Origin: a virus
Taxonomy: Duplodnaviria > Heunggongvirae > Uroviricota > Caudoviricetes
IMG/VR virus record: IMGVR_UViG_2695420701_000012
DNA length: 12,776 nucleotides
Strand: one strand, 5' to 3'
Shown: piece after piece, positions 7,483 through 12,776 of the stretch
How positions within the stretch are numbered: position 1 is the first letter of the stretch
How the letters are laid out: the number at the start of each line of letters is the position of its first letter
Made by a program: the position numbers and the translations under genes
Notes under the pieces: generated by a model
What the model was told of the DNA's origin: nothing
The model's database searches: none
What the model saw: the letters and a program-made list of their open reading frames with translations, nothing else

Positions 7483-7518
7483 AATCCGCCCTATGTGATG
7501 TGTTACCAATGCATAATT

Positions 7519-7581
7519 AATAGCACTGTTATTTTTAAAAGTAAATAGTGATGCTATTTCAAAGTGATTAGCAATCTTATT
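7519..7581. promoter_or_regulatory. Right operator region (OR-like): palindromes AATAGC-N3-GTTATT (7519-7533), AATAGT-N3-GCTATT (7544-7558) and a weaker ATTAGC-N3-CTTATT (7567-7581), between divergent cro-like and repressor genes
   Basis: Inverted-repeat half-sites read directly from the sequence. The first two centres are 25 bp apart, matching the spacing at 8654-8693. The divergent promoters must lie in this 110-bp interval. Confidence 0.55.
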
Positions 7582-7593
7582 AGAATTGGATGT

Positions 7594-8094
7594 ATGAAAA
7601 GAAAATCATTGTCAGACACCGACCTCAACGCCGCCAGAAGACTGAAAGAAATCTGGATGGCAAAGAAATCTCAGTTGGGATTGACTCAGGAACGTGCGGC
7701 GGAAATTATGGGGTTTTCAACACAAGGGGCGGTAAGTCACTACCTAAATGGTCAAACCCCACTAAACCTTGAGGCTGTTCTAAAGTTTGCTGGCTTACTG
7801 AAAGTTCCCCCTGAGTCAATCAGGCCAGACATGGTAGATTTGCTGCAAATTGCAAGGATGTATTGTCGAGAACCACAGCAAGATAACATAGTCGCATTAC
7901 CAGCAGACACAGAACAAACAGAGGATGAACTACCGTTTGCCGTAGAGCCGATGGAACGAGATTTAATCCATACGTTCAGAGCTTTTCCGAAAGAAGATCA
8001 AGAACACATGCTTCAGGAGATGAAAGATAAAAAAGAATCAATGGATCGTACGGTTGCGCGGTGGTTAGCTGCACAAAAAGGCCGTCGCGCCTAA
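7594..8094 (+). CDS. HTH (XRE-type) prophage repressor / TA-operon regulator, PaaR-like
   Basis: 166 aa from the first ATG; the track ORF starts at a GTG (7564) that would overlap the third operator. HTH segment LTQERAAEIMGFSTQGAVSHYLNG. It is the first gene of a three-gene operon with the antitoxin and ParE toxin, the arrangement I recall for paaR2-paaA2-parE2 in E. coli O157 prophage. Confidence 0.7.
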   Translation: MKRKSLSDTDLNAARRLKEIWMAKKSQLGLTQERAAEIMGFSTQGAVSHYLNGQTPLNLEAVLKFAGLLKVPPESIRPDMVDLLQIARMYCREPQQDNIVALPADTEQTEDELPFAVEPMERDLIHTFRAFPKEDQEHMLQEMKDKKESMDRTVARWLAAQKGRRA

Positions 8095-8113: not shown

Positions 8114-8308
8114 ATGAGTACAGTCCTTTCCCCAATGGTTTCAGAATTTGAGACAGTTGAGCAAGAAAATAGTTACAACGAATGGCTGCGGGCCAAAGTA
8201 GCAGCAAGCCTCGCGGATCCCCGCCCGGCGATTCCGCATGATGAGGTAATGGCGGAAATGGAACAAATTATTGCCCAAATTGCTGCTGCAACTCACAGAG
8301 GTGAATAA
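8114..8308 (+). CDS. Small antitoxin (PaaA-like) of the ParE-family toxin
   Basis: 64-aa acidic ORF with a GAGGAG Shine-Dalgarno upstream. Its TAA stop overlaps the toxin ATG (TAATG at 8306-8310). Confidence 0.65.
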   Translation: MSTVLSPMVSEFETVEQENSYNEWLRAKVAASLADPRPAIPHDEVMAEMEQIIAQIAAATHRGE

Positions 8309-8598
8309 TGTTACCCGTTTTATGGCTACCATCTGCTCGTGATGATTTGCGCCAGATCGTAGCCTACATAGCTAAAGAAAATCCCGCGGCAGCACGCAGA
8401 ATGAAAATTCGAATTGAAACATCCGTTTTGCCGCTCACAGAGCATCCTTACCTGTATCCTCCAAGCGAGCGAGTTCTTGGTCTTCGTGAAATTGTAACTC
8501 ATCCTAACTACATCATCCTTTACCGAGTAACAGCATCAAGCATAGAAGTAGTAAATATTGTGCATTCTCGAAGACAGTATCCAGGCAAAAACAGTTAA
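8308..8598 (+). CDS. parE: ParE/RelE-superfamily toxin
   Basis: 96 aa. The N-terminus (LPVLWLPSARDDLRQIVAYIAKENPAAARR) and C-terminal region (YIILYRVTASSIEVVNIVHSRR) match the ParE pattern as I know it. Translationally coupled to the upstream antitoxin. Confidence 0.8.
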   Translation: MLPVLWLPSARDDLRQIVAYIAKENPAAARRMKIRIETSVLPLTEHPYLYPPSERVLGLREIVTHPNYIILYRVTASSIEVVNIVHSRRQYPGKNS

Positions 8599-8638: not shown

Positions 8639-8653
8639 TGCCCCAACAAAAAC

Positions 8654-8695
8654 AATAGCGATGCTATTTACATCAAAAAATAATGATGCTATTGT
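8654..8695 (+). promoter_or_regulatory. Left operator/promoter (OL/PL-like): AATAGC-GAT-GCTATT (8654-8668, perfect palindrome) and AATAAT-GAT-GCTATT (8679-8693) overlapping a candidate -35 TTTACA (8667-8672) and -10 TATTGT (8690-8695), 17-bp spacer
   Basis: Same palindrome family and same 25-bp centre spacing as the sites at 7519-7558. The promoter hexamers are read by eye and are plausible for sigma70. Confidence 0.5.
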
Positions 8696-8874
8696 TTCAG
8701 GCGTCAACCCACCCCGCCCCACAGAATGCAGGGCAATACTTCGAGTTACCAGACAGTGGTCAGGGGTTAAGTAGCCAGCCCGAGGCGTAAGAACATGACG
8801 GCAGGGTTCAATCTTTAACTATGCAGCAGGTTTTTTGTTCCGCCACCCCGGCGTTAAGGGGAAATGAGGTCAGC

Positions 8875-9027
8875 ATGGATACTATCGATCTTGGCAACAA
8901 CGAATCTCTGGTGTGCGGCGTGTTCCCTAACCAGGATGGAACGTTTACCGCCATGACGTATACCAAAAGCAAAACGTTTAAAACCGAATCTGGCGCGCGT
9001 TGCTGGTTAGCCAGAAACACTGACTGA
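8875..9027 (+). CDS. Hypothetical small protein (50 aa), first gene downstream of the PL-like promoter
   Basis: ATG at 8875 preceded by GAGG with 5-nt spacing. The track ORF extends upstream to 8821 but has no Shine-Dalgarno there. The stop overlaps the next ATG (ATGA). Confidence 0.4.
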   Translation: MDTIDLGNNESLVCGVFPNQDGTFTAMTYTKSKTFKTESGARCWLARNTD

Positions 9028-9404
9028 TGAGGCTGACGATGGAATTTAAAGATTTACCGTCTGATGTACAGAAAACAGCAGCTCATACATTGCATTCTGT
9101 GCTGCGAGAAATCGGGAAAGATATTGCAAGCGAGCCAGCAAAAGATCTGGCCCGGAAAATCAAGACCGCTTTCGTTGAGCTTTATAATGTTGGCACTGAC
9201 TCTGAAACTGTCGAGACCAAGACCGTAAGTTCACCAATATTCTCACTTGAGCCAAGCGTATTATCAGGTGAAATATGCACCGAGATTTCCAGCGAACTGC
9301 TTCCGGTAATACGAGAAGCAATTCGCCGTCGCGGTTTGGATGGAAGTTATGATCATGACGTTCTGCAAGTTCTCAGGACAATGGTGACTTCACTGGGGAT
9401 TTGA
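9027..9404 (+). CDS. Hypothetical phage protein (about 121-125 aa)
   Basis: ORF coupled to the upstream small gene. An alternative ATG at 9039 has a better Shine-Dalgarno (GAGG). No motif recognised. Confidence 0.5.
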   Translation: MRLTMEFKDLPSDVQKTAAHTLHSVLREIGKDIASEPAKDLARKIKTAFVELYNVGTDSETVETKTVSSPIFSLEPSVLSGEICTEISSELLPVIREAIRRRGLDGSYDHDVLQVLRTMVTSLGI

Positions 9405-9573
9405 TCCCTGCGTCCTCTAAGCTTTTGATATAGCGGTCCTCCAAGAAGCGGTAAATTTTGTCGAAATCATCTTTTCCCTCTGGTTTATTCAGAGGATTAC
9501 AGGACCCGTAAGTAGCGGCATACATTTCAACCGTTTTATCAAAAATATAAGAGACAAATTCTTCTTTAGTCAT
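9373..9573 (-). CDS. Hypothetical small protein (66 aa), AT-rich cargo gene with a structured leader
   Basis: ATG at 9573 preceded by an AAGAAGGA Shine-Dalgarno. The track ORF extends to 9747, but that extra stretch is better explained as a leader. Overlaps the 3' end of the convergent plus-strand gene by 32 bp. Confidence 0.45.
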   Translation of the reverse strand: MTKEEFVSYIFDKTVEMYAATYGSCNPLNKPEGKDDFDKIYRFLEDRYIKSLEDAGIKSPVKSPLS

Positions 9574-9773
9574 ATAGATTTCCTTCTTGGTTATTCGGGA
9601 TAAGAAGGATACCACCTCGCCTGACGTGGTTAAAAGCAGGCACACAACGCGAAATGACGCGGCGGTAAGTATGGCGGAGTTATTCCTTCCCCGTTGAGGA
9701 CACCGGGTTGTCAGGTTGACCATACGCTTAAGTGACAACCACGCCACAACACTCCATGTTGATTGGTACCTTT

Positions 9774-9814
9774 GGCGGCATCAGTTTCATTGCTGGCTGA
9801 TGTCCGCCCTTTTT
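9774..9814 (+). terminator. Intrinsic terminator candidate at the start of repeat element X
   Basis: Imperfect inverted repeat ggcggcatcag (9774-9784) / ctgatgtccgcc (9797-9808) followed by ctttttaaa. Repeated in the other copies of the module (for example about 10889-10929). Confidence 0.5.
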
Positions 9815-10298
9815 AAAGTGAATTTTGTGATGCGGTGAATGCGGCTCAGCGCACGCGGCACAGTTAAAAAGCGATTAGTTCCCCCGTATCGGGTGGTTAT
9901 GGGTTTCCCTGTATCCGGCGTTAATTGTTAACTGGTTAACGTCACCTGGAGGCACCAGGCACCGCATCAACAAAGTTCACTTCGGTGATGAAAGGAAAGA
10001 GAAAATGTTGAATGTAGCTATTGAAAACCAGAACGGGTGGAATTATAGTGCACCTGCACCTCATAAAACGGGTGCCGGGATTGCTACCCCGAAGTCATTC
10101 ACGGCGCATAACCGCGCTCAGGCGGTTTTTTTATGCGTAATGCACAGCCACATTCAAATTATGGTGGGGCGTGCGGGGCAGTCGCAAGACTGGCCGGGTT
10201 CTCGAGTGACCGGTATTTCCACCCCTGTACGTCTCACCACCCATGAGATTGCTACCTCCGGTGGTGAGTTAATCAAATTCATCGCGGAGGCTGCCATC

Positions 10299-10427
10299 AT
10301 GGCTACTACCCTTTCTCACCCTTGTGTAACCGTAGAAAACGGTCGCGCTGTCACTACGTCTGTTGCGGTTGCAGAGTTCTTCCACAAACGACACNCAGGA
10401 TATTCACCGGGTCTTGGCGGGGTATAA
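10299..10427 (+). pseudogene. Truncated Rha-family antirepressor N-terminal fragment (copy A)
   Basis: MATTLSHPCVTVENGRAVTTSVAVAEFFHKRH matches the N-terminus of the intact Rha ORF at 12455, but diverges after about 32 codons (an N at 10395) and stops at 10427. Confidence 0.4.
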
Positions 10428-10694
10428 ATACCATGCGCATTGACTGAATTCGCAAACAAAAACAGACGCGCGATACCTGGATAGTCGGTCTGCATAGTCA
10501 GATATCTGGCTGCGAATTTGATAAATATCACCGCCCTTTTCGGAAACATAAGTTCCGTCCGGGAGTTGATTATACGAACCATCTCCATGGGGGATCGTTC
10601 TCCTGAATCCTAGTGAGAGCATATATTTATGAAGCCCTTCGTAATCCTCTGGCTCAGCATTATATAGTTCTACTCTGGCGAGATACGTTGGCAT
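10404..10694 (-). CDS. Hypothetical small protein (96 aa), AT-rich cargo gene with a structured leader
   Basis: ORF 10404-10700; the ATG at 10694 has better spacing to the TAAGGAA Shine-Dalgarno than the ATG at 10700. The leader is homologous to that of the 9373-9573 gene. No family assignable from memory. Confidence 0.5.
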   Translation of the reverse strand: MPTYLARVELYNAEPEDYEGLHKYMLSLGFRRTIPHGDGSYNQLPDGTYVSEKGGDIYQIRSQISDYADRLSRYRASVFVCEFSQCAWYLYPAKTR

Positions 10695-11253
10695 ATTCAT
10701 TTCCTTACTGGTTGTGTGAGAACTTCAGTAAAGATACCACCAAAGCCCGGAGGTGGTGAAATAAAACCGGGCACAACACGAAGGCGCATTTCCGGTATCC
10801 ATAAAGAGTCGGTCTTGTCTGTGAAATTTAAATGGTGGGAGTGCGCTTCCGGTTGTAAATAACGACATTGCTGTGTGAAGTACCAGTTGGCGGCATCGGT
10901 TTAATTGCTGGCTGATGTCCGCCCTTTTTAAAGTGAATTTTGTGATGCGGTGAATGCGGCTCAGCGCACGCGGCACAGTTAAAAAGCGATTAGTTCCCCC
11001 GTATCGGGTGGTTATGGGTTTCCCTGTATCCGGCGTTAATTGTTAACTGGTTAACGTCACCTGGAGGCACCAGGCACCGCATCAACAAAATTCACTTCGG
11101 TGATGAAAGGTGAGAGAAAATGTTGAATGTAGCTATTGAAAACCAGAACGGGTGGAATTATAGTGCACCTGCACCTCATAAAACGGGTGCCGGGATTGCT
11201 ACCCCGAAGTCATTCACGGCGCATAACCGCGCTCAGGCGGTTTTTTTATGCGT

Positions 11254-11274
11254 NNNNNNNNNNNNNNNNNNNNN
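11254..11274. other. Assembly gap (21 N); a second gap of 10 N lies at 11787-11796 and a single N at 10395
   Basis: N characters in the sequence. Both runs fall exactly at boundaries of the repeated module, typical of scaffolded repeat collapse. Confidence 0.95.
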
Positions 11275-12049
11275 TTGATTGGTACCTTTGGCGGCATCAG
11301 TTTCATTGCTGGCTGATGTCCGCCCTTTTTAAAGTGAATTTTGTGATGCGGTGAATGCGGCTATGCGCACGCGGCACAGTTAAAAGTCATGTTAGTCCTT
11401 ATTGGTTTGGGTGGGAAAGCCAACTGTAATTGTTAACTGGTTAACGTCACCTGGAGGCACCAGGCACCGCATCAACAAAGTTCACTTCGGTGATGAAAGG
11501 AAAGAGAAAATGTTGAATGTAGCTATTGAAAACCAGAACGGGTGGAATTATAGTGCACCTGCACCTTATAAAACGGGTGCCGGGCGTGGAAACCCGAACG
11601 TTACTCGAGCGCATAGCCGCGCTGAAGCGGTTTTTTTATGCGTAATGCACAGCTCCATTCAAATTATGGTGGGATGTGCAGGGCAGTCGCAAGACTGGCC
11701 GGGTTCTCGAGTGACCGGTATTTCCACCCCTGTACGTCTCACCACCCTTATGGTCGTGGAAAACCTCGGTGGTGAGTTAATTAACTNNNNNNNNNNCGGA
11801 GGTGGTGAAATAAAACCGGGCACAACACGAAGGCGCATTTCCGGTATCCATAAAGAGTCGGTCTTGTCTGTGAAATTTAAATGGTGGGAGTGCGCTTCCG
11901 GTTGTAAATAACGACATTGCTGTGTGAAGTACCAGTTGGCGGCATCGGTTTAATTGCTGGCTGATGTCCGCCCTTTTTAAAGTGAATTTTGTGATGCGGT
12001 GAATGCGGCTATGCGCACGCGGCACAGTTAAAAGTCATGTTAGTCCTTA

Positions 12050-12093
12050 TTGGTTTGGGTGGGAAAGCCAACTGTAATTGTTAACTGGTTAAC
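12050..12093 (+). promoter_or_regulatory. Candidate sigma70 promoter in block Y2 (-35 TTGGTT, 17-bp spacer, -10 TGTAAT) followed by GTTAAC-TG-GTTAAC (12080-12093)
   Basis: Hexamers read by eye; the same arrangement occurs in copy C (11402-11445). Block Y1 copies carry a poorer -35/-10 at the equivalent position. Confidence 0.45.
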
Positions 12094-12262
12094 GTCACCT
12101 GGAGGCACCAGGCACCGCATCAACAAAATTCACTTCGGTGATGAAAGGTGAGAGAAAATGTTGAATGTAGCTATTGAAAACCAGAACGGGTGGAATTATA
12201 GTGCACCTGCACCTCATAAAACGGGTGCCGGGCGTGGAAACCCGAAATCATTCACGGCGCAT

Positions 12263-12285
12263 AACCGCGCTCAGGCGGTTTTTTT
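12263..12285 (+). terminator. Conserved hairpin plus U7 (attenuator-like terminator) inside the leader ORF
   Basis: Stem aaccgc / gcggtt with 6-nt loop followed by ttttttt. Also present at 10110-10132, 11225-11247 and 11615-11637. In copy C the stem carries a->g, giving a G-U wobble that preserves pairing. Confidence 0.4.
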
Positions 12286-12454
12286 ATGCGTTAAGCACAG
12301 CCACATTCGCATTATGGTGGGGCGTGCAGGGCAACCGCAAGGCTGGCCGGGTTCCGTGATGACCGGTATTTCCACCCCTGTACGTCTCACCACCCTTATG
12401 GTCGTGGAAAACCTCGGTGGTGAGTTAATCAAATTCATCGCGGAGGCTGCCATC

Positions 12455-12776
12455 ATGGCTACTATCCTTACCCTTTCTCACCCTGACGTAACCATCGAAA
12501 ATGGTCGCGCTGTCACTACCTCTGTTGCGATCGCCGAGTTCTTTGGCAAACGCCACGAACGAGTGTTGGATAAAATTCGCAATCTGGACTGTTCAGCAAA
12601 ATTCACTGAGCACAATTTTGTGTCGAGCGAATACACCGACTCAACCGGGCGCAAACTCCCAATGTACCAAATCACCAAAAACGGCTTCGTTTTCCTGGTG
12701 ATGGGCTTCACGGGCAAAAAAGCCGCCGCATTCAAAGAGGCATACATTGCTGAGTTCGACCGCATGGAGGCCGAAC
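12455..12776 (+). CDS. rha: Rha-family phage regulatory protein / antirepressor (Bro-N/Rha-type N-terminal domain), 5' part only; runs off the window
   Basis: Translation MATILTLSHPDVTIENGRAVTTSVAIAEFFGKRHERVLDKIRNL... fits the Rha/AntA N-terminal domain pattern. GGAGG lies 8 nt upstream of the ATG. The frame is open to the window end and is also open upstream to the ATG at 12158 (see findings). Confidence 0.75.
   Translation, partial: MATILTLSHPDVTIENGRAVTTSVAIAEFFGKRHERVLDKIRNLDCSAKFTEHNFVSSEYTDSTGRKLPMYQITKNGFVFLVMGFTGKKAAAFKEAYIAEFDRMEAE

Follow-up and report, generated by a model that had tools for sequence, protein, structure and literature searches.

The module and its two copies in the window

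The window, i.e., the whole stretch of 12,776 nucleotides (nt) of the virus record IMGVR_UViG_2695420701_000012 (IMG/VR; Caudoviricetes), comprises the immunity and early region of a Qin/Rac/e14-like lambdoid prophage, as judged from its gene layout and from related annotated prophages. It harbors two small genes, here called cargo genes, each preceded by a copy of one block with three helices (H0, H1, and H2), a Shine-Dalgarno sequence (SD) and the start codon, and this block, which we call the module, is the subject of this report. Both cargo genes are located on the minus strand, antisense to the early-left operon, and the repressor gene and a ydfA-like gene on the plus strand. The cargo genes, with lengths in amino acids (aa), and the modules comprise the following features:

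9373-9573, minus strand: cargo gene 1, 66 aa, PHROG 34441, hypothetical; ATG at 9573
9571-9644, minus strand: module copy 1 (H0-H1-H2-SD-ATG); covariance model R1 83.5 bits, E 1e-18
9619-9641: H0 of copy 1; GCCTG (9637-9641) pairs with CAGGC (9619-9623)
9611-9630: H1 of copy 1; ACCAC (9626-9630) pairs with GTGGT (9611-9615); the first hairpin of the sequence-only reading described below
9581-9609: H2 of copy 1; TCCTTCTT (9602-9609) pairs with AAGAAGGA (9581-9588); the SD hairpin of that reading
9581-9585, minus strand: SD of copy 1, AAGGA
10404-10694, minus strand: cargo gene 2, 96 aa, YmfI-family phage protein, PHROG 8894; ATG at 10694
10692-10775, minus strand: module copy 2 (H0-H1-H2-SD-ATG); R1 56.8 bits, E 3e-12
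10745-10772: H0 of copy 2; GCCCGG (10767-10772) pairs with CCGGGC (10745-10750), compensatory to copy 1
10736-10757: H1 of copy 2; ACCACC (10752-10757) pairs with GGTGGT (10736-10741)
10702-10734: H2 of copy 2; TCTTTACTG (10726-10734) pairs with CAGTAAGGA (10702-10710)
10702-10706, minus strand: SD of copy 2, AAGGA
11797-11824, minus strand: third module copy, partial, with the 5' arms of H0 and H1 only (repeat D3), cut by a run of N

A sequence-only reading had described the leaders of the two genes, 9574-9758 and 10695-10880, as one shared architecture of two hairpins upstream of dissimilar proteins, the second hairpin hiding the SD by arms that covary. Both hairpin pairs, H1 and H2 in our numbering, are read directly from the sequence at the positions listed, and they form the minimum free energy (MFE) structure of both leaders with -17.9 and -17.6 kcal/mol (RNAfold; z = -2.0 and -1.6), respectively. 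The two proteins are indeed dissimilar, with 16% identity (alignment A4) and different PHROG assignments, gene 2 belonging to the YmfI family; close relatives of cargo gene 1 carry the RefSeq label hypothetical protein (WP_000159335.1) only. For cargo gene 2, the SD spacing is better for the ATG at 10694 than for the ATG at 10700. The common architecture holds for the approximately 75 nt ending at each ATG (9571-9644 and 10692-10775), but not for the outer parts of the leaders, 9645-9758 and 10776-10880, which are mutually unrelated. The outer part of leader 2 comprises the promoter and the 5' part of a KilS/DicF-type small RNA (sRNA) gene on the opposite strand.

Beyond the two hairpins described before, H0 is a third helix, which encloses the 5' arm of H1 in both copies, and therefore H0 and H1 are either alternatives or form a pseudoknot. 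The motif GGTGGTATC-N15-40-AAGGAAAT occurs twice in the window versus 0.00 times expected from shuffles, and the covariance model R1 detects only the two full copies therein (83.5 and 56.8 bits), the next best match reaching 9 bits. Copy 1 has identical copies in many Escherichia coli prophages, and the H0/H1 part of copy 2 is nearly identical to the block upstream of sieB in the Rac prophage. The break in the third copy is an assembly gap and no biological junction.

A family with exchangeable cargo and covarying helices

The module belongs to a large homologous family, of which about 75 non-redundant variants were found. A scan of one genome per species revealed it in about 57 species of Enterobacterales, covering the genera Escherichia, Klebsiella, Citrobacter, Enterobacter, Serratia, Proteus, Providencia, Morganella, Xenorhabdus, Rahnella, Hafnia, Edwardsiella, and Pantoea. 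Two core variants are present in 852 and 2059, respectively, of 5426 complete E. coli genomes, and no feature is annotated at the module in any of them. From two pattern scans of IMG/VR, about 46 different leaders were obtained, and the small proteins encoded behind them are of at least 25 unrelated kinds, among them ECs_2282-type zinc-binding, BssS-family, DUF1883, ECs1072-family and Lar-like zinc ribbon proteins as well as several PHROGs without known function. Moreover, the module heads ymfI of e14, sieB of Rac and sieB of lambda and P22. Known defense genes were considered as cargo, and PADLOC gave no matches. Rfam gave no match in 9571-9644 or 10692-10775 at E-values up to 1; its nearby matches, all on the plus strand, are C4, isrK, DicF-like and STnc100-like elements. 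The flanking sequences, both before H0 and past the stop codon of the cargo, are unrelated between variants, and thus the conserved unit is delimited by H0 and the start codon; past the cargo stop codons, a search for a conserved 3' boundary of the cassette revealed none.

The covariation of the SD-hairpin arms is far better supported by the family than by the two window copies alone. Cognate H2 arms pair with -7.6 kcal/mol compared to -5.3 kcal/mol in chimeras of different variants (Mann-Whitney p = 1e-8), and the arms diverge completely among homologs while staying complementary, as in CCTTCTT/AAGAAGG, CTTTACTG/CAGTAAGG, CCTCT/AGAGG, CCTTAAAA/TTTTAAGG, TCTTGG/CCAAGA, GCTGG/CCAGC, GCTAG/CTAGC, and TTTTGTGT/ACACAAAA. 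The middle pair of H0 is U-A in 32, G-C in five and C-G in two sequences, with two further sequences misaligned, and 98% of the cells are paired. The search patterns fixed parts of H0 and H1 including the H1 core, so that only the few matches found by the model alone are unconstrained there, and among these H1 has the compensatory variants ACCCUC/GAGGGU and GGCG/CGCC. The observed covariation was reached by none of 500 shuffles. The sequence-only reading was therefore right about a selected structured block, all helices of which show compensatory changes, in front of exchangeable cargo of at least 25 unrelated families, whereas its assumption that the hairpins act in the 5' leader of the cargo mRNA by hiding the SD is unsupported.

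Homologs of the TCTTGG class from different genera share a strongly conserved H2 loop, (A)GTTCTCACACA(A/G)CC, which is CA-rich on the cargo strand (10711-10725 in the window; also in L234, L236, and L247), and on the other strand it reads GGUUGUGUGAGAAC and resembles the R1 seed of GcvB. This suggests that an RNA or a protein recognizes the loop by its sequence.

The homologs in P22, lambda and K-12

The covariance model R1, which was built from window-type leaders, matches just upstream of sieB in lambda (34394-34460, 50.7 bits), P22 (49.8 bits) and Rac (30.9 bits), and upstream of ymfI in e14 (79.7 bits), with near-identity over H0-H1 (alignment A6). In all four, the cargo is opposed to the early-left operon as well, sieB running against the pL operon. 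Ranade and Poteete reportedly mapped the start of P22 sieB in 1993 (said to be in J Bacteriol 175:4712) and identified the lambda sieB promoter by homology; a second work of theirs from the same year (Genes Dev 7:1498) is said to describe a switch between sieB and esc by the sas RNA. In the RefSeq record of P22 (NC_002371), the sieB promoter is given at 29690-29720 and the mapped RNA start at 29727. In coordinates of the P22 locus, H0 is formed by 914-918/933-937, H1 by 926-930/941-945 and H2 by 947-951/964-968, the -35 element (951-956) lies in the H2 loop, the -10 element TAAACT is at 976-981 and the RNA starts at A988. This start is past all helices, and thus H0, H1 and H2 are located upstream of the sieB mRNA. 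The start itself is in the loop of a second H2-like hairpin (CTCT...AGAG, 980-999), the 5' arm of which overlaps the -10 element.

The sieB-type copies contain the unit of H2 loop and 3' arm twice, first as ACCCCTACAGCGAGA and, about 35-40 nt further downstream, as ACCCCTACAGAGAG or ACCCTTACAGTTGAGAG; this applies to P22 (947-999 of L300), Rac (8596-8670 of L222) and lambda (3430-3480 of L299). The second unit holds the -10 element of the mapped promoter, the start site and the SD of sieB.

On the opposite strand, P22 produces sas, a 105-nt cis-antisense regulator of sieB by which translation is switched from one of sieB and esc to the other. The 127-nt small-RNA read cluster P22A-sas, as which it was found again in 2026, is the exact reverse complement of the sieB ATG, the 5' untranslated region (UTR), the promoter, H2, H1 and H0. 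In E. coli K-12, Term-seq revealed two "orphan" 3' ends at 1201423 (e14) and 1418562 (Rac) (Adams et al., 2021). Both are on the strand opposite to the cargo, 2-3 nt past H0, upstream of ymfI and sieB, respectively. The e14 end was found in three growth conditions, with a Rho score of 1.95, which is not significant, and an intrinsic-terminator score of 1.18 at a threshold of 3 (Adams et al., 2021). That this site is contained in supplementary file 3 of that study implies a mapped start on the same strand, 21-353 nt upstream of it. The Cappable-seq, SMRT-Cappable-seq, ROSE and Conway supplements contain no entry for this K-12 locus.

A putative promoter on the cargo strand

In both window copies, an extended -10 element (TGGTATCCT and TGGTATCTT) straddles the junction of H1 and H2:

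9606-9614, minus strand: putative extended -10 TG-G-TATCCT of cargo gene 1; TG 9613-9614, hexamer 9606-9611
10731-10739, minus strand: putative extended -10 TG-G-TATCTT of cargo gene 2; TG 10738-10739, hexamer 10731-10736

It is the only promoter-like site within 140-150 nt upstream of either gene, and under stricter rules there is none. Transcription of cargo gene 1 is predicted to start at about 9598-9600 in the H2 loop, and the cargo mRNAs of the window probably start inside hairpin 2. If transcription starts about 7 nt past the hexamer, the cargo mRNA would lack the 5' arm of H2, as in the mapped geometry of P22. A conserved promoter upstream of H0 was considered as well and rejected, as 33 distinct flanks show no positional -35/-10 signal and a consensus scan was empty.

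Across the H2 classes TCCT, TCTT, TGCT, TTCT, and TCAT, T1, A2, T3 and T6 of the hexamer do not vary, T1-A2-T3 having been fixed by the patterns of both scans and T6 in the second one. The element is retained in two homologs that were found without pattern constraint: in L230b, TGGTATCAT is present as an element apart from the 3' arm of H1, and L150b has TG-A-TATCCT though its H1 is weakened in the cargo sense. The sieB-type copies, among them those of lambda, P22 and Rac, lack the TAT of the extended -10 and have their promoter further downstream. As all three helices are nevertheless retained there, selection on them is independent of that promoter.

The helices on the two strands

Among 67 family members, a full-length sense RNA would have its whole SD core paired in 26 cases, a part of it in 12 and none of it in 29; the last group includes ymfI of K-12, with H2 ending 5 nt before the SD. 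Thus SD sequestration is no defining property of the family.

Sequence statistics of the helices do not decide on the strand. In H2, 23 G-U pairs stand against 32 A-C positions (7 versus 16 for internal ones), which does not favor the cargo strand; A-C on the cargo strand equals G-U on the other one, and the CA-rich loops bias this count. Folding energies were uninformative, with a mean z of -0.71 in the cargo sense and -0.88 for the reverse complement. Two further pairings with the H2 loop were considered and rejected. Pairing of the H0 5' flank (RTTGTGT) with the CA-rich H2 loop does not distinguish cognate from non-cognate combinations (-3.6 versus -3.4 kcal/mol, p = 0.24), and an anti-sequester pairing of GGUGGU with CACCAC in the H2 loop is no general mechanism, since the loop motif is present in a few variants only.

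For the strand opposite to the cargo, the following RNAs can be predicted:

9574-9644, plus strand: predicted body of a sas-like antisense RNA or structured 3' end of the early-left transcript, copy 1; 3' end at about 9643-9644
10695-10775, plus strand: predicted body of a sas-like antisense RNA or structured 3' end, copy 2; 3' end at about 10774-10775

On this strand, the MFE folds of both copies comprise H2' (a prime marks a helix of the opposite strand) plus H0', which is picked alone over H1', and the whole P22 sas RNA folds with z = -2.6. The helices H0 and H1, which are interleaved as in an H-type pseudoknot, are each backed by compensatory changes. The antisense loops fit such a fold, with S1 formed by H1', an L1 of 2-4 nt, S2 formed by H0' and an A-rich L3 of 6-11 nt (e.g., GAAAAGA, UUAAAAG, or AGAAGUAAC), whereas in the cargo sense the loop is tight, with an L3 of 2-4 nt across the minor groove of a 5-6-bp stem. 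By this geometric argument, canonical pseudoknot loops would be possible in the antisense orientation only. The module contains no intrinsic terminator, i.e., no GC-rich hairpin with U-tract, on either strand. Candidates for antisense promoters are weak (TAGATT at 9575-9580, TATAGT at 10663-10668, and TG-G-CATATT at 10692-10697), in a scan that also misses P_sas of P22.

A proposed two-strand cassette and its alternatives

The block can best be explained as a cassette of the type of the sieB control region that is used on both strands, with a promoter and SD for the cargo on one strand and a sas-like antisense RNA or an early-left read-through RNA on the other one, and we put the probability of this explanation at roughly 0.55. 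The module would then be a portable cassette that precedes accessory genes of antisense orientation within the early-left operon. In window-type copies, the extended -10 at the H1/H2 junction would direct cargo transcription from a start in the H2 loop, giving a short and unstructured 5' UTR with the strong SD AAGGA 7-8 nt before the ATG. The RNA of the opposite strand would comprise H2', followed by the interleaved H1' and H0' as an H-type pseudoknot or as alternative hairpins, and would end 2-3 nt after H0' without a U-tract. Its 5' part would be complementary to SD and start codon of the cargo and could control translation in cis, similar to the effect of sas on sieB/esc of P22. The covariation would then reflect selection on the hairpins of the antisense RNA, and the homology across the module could allow recombination to exchange the downstream open reading frame (ORF). 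Post-transcriptional control, as proposed by the sequence-only reading, is thus likely retained, but through a cis-antisense RNA and not through an intramolecular leader hairpin.

Several points weigh against this explanation. At the two window loci, promoter activity, antisense RNA and regulatory effect are what we infer: the activity of TGnTATCYT is judged from its consensus and by analogy to P22, and the plus-strand RNA is predicted from P22 sas and the K-12 3' ends, that is, from homologs only. The position of the promoter varies across the family, as seen in the sieB-type copies, and in the first codons of either cargo gene there is no convincing antisense promoter, although the same scan also misses P_sas of P22. 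The 3' extents differ, the P22 cluster reaching 17 nt past H0 and the K-12 ends 2-3 nt, and the simultaneous formation of H0 and H1 is putative. Furthermore, both window copies belong to the 26 of 67 members with a fully paired SD core, and some helices have G-U pairs that are usable in the cargo sense only (leader 2, L182, and L174).

The latter two points suit the explanation that the helices act in the cargo-sense RNA, in which transcripts from upstream of H0 would fold H1 and H2, and H2 would hide the SD. A fold-back variant thereof assumes that only transcripts from the internal extended -10, which lack the 5' arm, are translated, and that the cassette is thereby insulated from outside transcription; such fold-back insulation of the transposase mRNAs of IS10 and IS50 was reportedly described by Davis, Simons and Kleckner in 1985. 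Besides the folding of both window leaders into H1 and H2, the class I 5' arm UCCUU is a mimic of the anti-SD, the arms covary with the surroundings of the SD, and conservation stops exactly at the start codon. Yet we consider it unlikely that the helices work in this sense. The mapped P22 start is downstream of all of them and sas is the reverse complement of the block, the K-12 3' ends are on the opposite strand, the extended -10 lies at the H1/H2 junction, and upstream of H0 no conserved promoter is found in flanks that are unrelated among variants. Moreover, the SD is wholly unpaired in 29 of 67 members including ymfI of K-12, helix positions with A-C, hence G-U on the other strand, exceed those with G-U, and H0 and H1 would be left without a role. 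To our knowledge, no rightward transcription into this region of lambda or P22 has been described.

The structure might instead serve the early-left transcript alone, as a terminator-like or processing site or as a barrier to 3' exonucleases, comparable to a boundary of the tL1 type and without any regulation of the cargo. In lambda, the module is located between N and ral, which is presumably where classical maps place tL1; its coordinate is neither annotated in NC_001416 or J02459 nor given in the literature searched. The distance from the module to the next early-left gene, ydfC, is about 25 nt in some genomes, and two K-12 prophages have opposite-strand 3' ends at the H0 base; ends of this kind, which depend neither on Rho nor on an intrinsic terminator, are classed as processing products by the authors (Adams et al., 2021). 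A mere end of the early-left transcript is nonetheless improbable in our view. There is no U-tract and the intrinsic-terminator score is only 1.18, the e14 site belongs to the 3' ends with a nearby mapped start, which points to a separate short RNA, and sas of P22, a demonstrated regulator, is made from exactly this DNA; conservation up to the cargo ATG would also be left unexplained. That the inverted repeats act as DNA, either as operator of a phage regulator or as site of cassette exchange, is very improbable. H0 does flank the putative -35 region, symmetric changes would also suit a palindromic protein-binding site and the module is a mosaic junction, but the H2 arms are wholly different between variants and still complementary, interleaved helices such as H0/H1 are typical of RNA and not of protein sites, and the cargo has no conserved 3' boundary.

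Comparison with known systems

The two-strand cassette has its closest counterpart in the sieB control region of P22, which shares the homologous H0-H1-H2 sequence (49.8 bits) and the same genomic place, and in which a small RNA from the opposite strand covers the block; at the window loci such an RNA is predicted only. Unlike in P22, the cargo of the window is not sieB/esc, as there is no sieB with an in-frame internal esc start. In window-type copies SD and ATG directly follow H2 and the promoter candidate is at the H1/H2 junction, whereas the P22 promoter (TGTACC/TAAACT) is located about 35 nt further on, after the duplicated H2-like unit. The region upstream of lambda sieB is likewise matched by R1, with sieB opposite to pL transcription between N and ral, but it lacks the TAT of the extended -10 (GGTGGTTCTCG), and no RNA feature is annotated there (NC_001416, J02459).

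With the fold-back structure of IS10/IS50 and its RNA-OUT, the module has in common that the -10 element and the start, both putative in the module, lie in the 5' arm or loop of a hairpin, the 3' arm of which is the ribosome-binding site, and that a cis-antisense RNA, predicted in case of the module, runs across the translation start. However, there is no sequence relation, and the antisense RNA of the module has two extra interleaved helices and no U-tract terminator. SD-sequestering leaders such as the RNA thermometers fourU and ROSE and translational riboswitches resemble the module in a weak hairpin, in which a pyrimidine-rich arm pairs with AAGGA over 6-9 bp at -6 to -11 kcal/mol. They differ in that the SD of the module is unpaired in 29 of 67 members, its hairpin is probably outside the mRNA and its cargo is functionally unrelated. 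KilS/DicF-type sRNAs are neighbors of the module in Rac, e14 and the window, encoded on the early-left strand, but each of them is a gene apart, with a start site and an intrinsic terminator of its own and no sequence in common with the module. AgvB/AsxR-type anti-sRNAs were considered and dismissed, being located in the late region.

The sas RNA and the sieB promoter of P22 are already known, and the homology of lambda to the P22 sieB promoter is said to have been noted in 1993. New, in that they are absent from Rfam and from the literature searched, are the family throughout the Enterobacterales, its three covarying helices and its association with dozens of unrelated genes including ymfI of K-12; the account of the two orphan K-12 3' ends is new as well. 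The element is very common and yet unannotated, being present in lambda, P22, two K-12 prophages, thousands of E. coli genomes and about 57 species of Enterobacterales. It marks a hotspot for small accessory genes in lambdoid prophages, at the same position as the superinfection-exclusion gene sieB, gives a simple route to such cargo genes, provides a candidate Rfam family with three covarying helices and offers a testable explanation for the two orphan Term-seq 3' ends of K-12. Furthermore, it would illustrate that a real covarying structure can be put on the wrong strand when only the sequence is read, since the inverted repeats of the module overlap with a putative promoter and the cargo SD on one strand and would form an antisense RNA on the other one.

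As a tentative extension, the module might be a general "gene-capture" platform of temperate Enterobacterales phages that provides any ORF with a lysogen-active promoter, a strong SD and a cis-antisense regulator. If so, the pseudoknotted 3' end of this regulator would form without a U-tract terminator, and the near-invariant H0/H1 core would be the homology by which cargo is swapped between phages. In that case there would be a large and so far unannotated family of antisense RNAs, founded by sas, that control dozens of accessory genes of unknown function, including ymfI and sieB of K-12.

Genomic setting of the modules

Left of the cargo genes, the window contains the following genes:

7564-8094, plus strand: helix-turn-helix (HTH) repressor gene
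8114-8598, plus strand: paaA2-parE2 toxin-antitoxin pair
8821-9027, plus strand: ydfA-like DUF1391 gene

The genes for PaaA2 antitoxin and ParE toxin directly follow the 3' end of the repressor gene, which can be compared with the paaR2-paaA2-parE2 locus in prophages of E. coli O157. Repeated palindromes (AATAGCA...TGCTATT) are present at 7512-7558, between the divergent repressor and cro-like genes, and at 8647-8693, upstream of the ydfA-like gene, and are likely the repressor operators for two early promoters. H2 had also been considered as an operator of the prophage repressor, which was rejected because the likely operators are this other palindrome, ATAGC-N-GCTAT (repeat D7).

The 3' end of cargo gene 1 (9373-9404) overlaps by 32 nt with the 3' end of a convergent ORF of 125 aa (9027-9404), for which Pfam gave no match. 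At other loci the cargo genes likewise abut or overlap a convergent early-left gene, and a spacer or terminator is absent. Beside cargo gene 2, a Rha/ant-like ORF (10005-10427) breaks off at about 10394.

Right of cargo gene 1, the plus strand of 9761-12776 is occupied by a tandem array of four diverged units. They are made up of a hairpin-terminator resembling DicF, a stretch similar to STnc100, isrK (64-68 bits) and a C4 antisense RNA, which is present three times (76-78 bits). Two of the four units run into the start of an icd/Ash-Rha (ant-like) gene, and two contain a strong plus-strand promoter, TTGAAA-17-TATAGT (10021-10049 and 11136-11164). The DicF-like elements are located on the plus strand at 9761-9814, about 10835-10929, 11277-11325 and 11923-11973, with 28-39 bits, which is below the Rfam threshold, and two of them have intrinsic terminators. 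Judged by its homology with Rac, the copy at about 10835-10929 is an sRNA gene of the KilS type, which has a separate start site and is oriented divergently to cargo gene 2. A similar DicF-like element of e14 lies within the annotated "ymfH", with a 3' end at 1201195. Such an array of immI-type modules is unusual and may partly be an assembly artifact, the window being a scaffolded draft assembly with a run of ten N at 11787-11796 and one further N near 10395; right of 9760, the repeated units may in reality be arranged in another order. In related E. coli prophages (L001, 1-494; L003, 54-719), an annotated gene for the epoxyqueuosine reductase QueH adjoins the replication genes.

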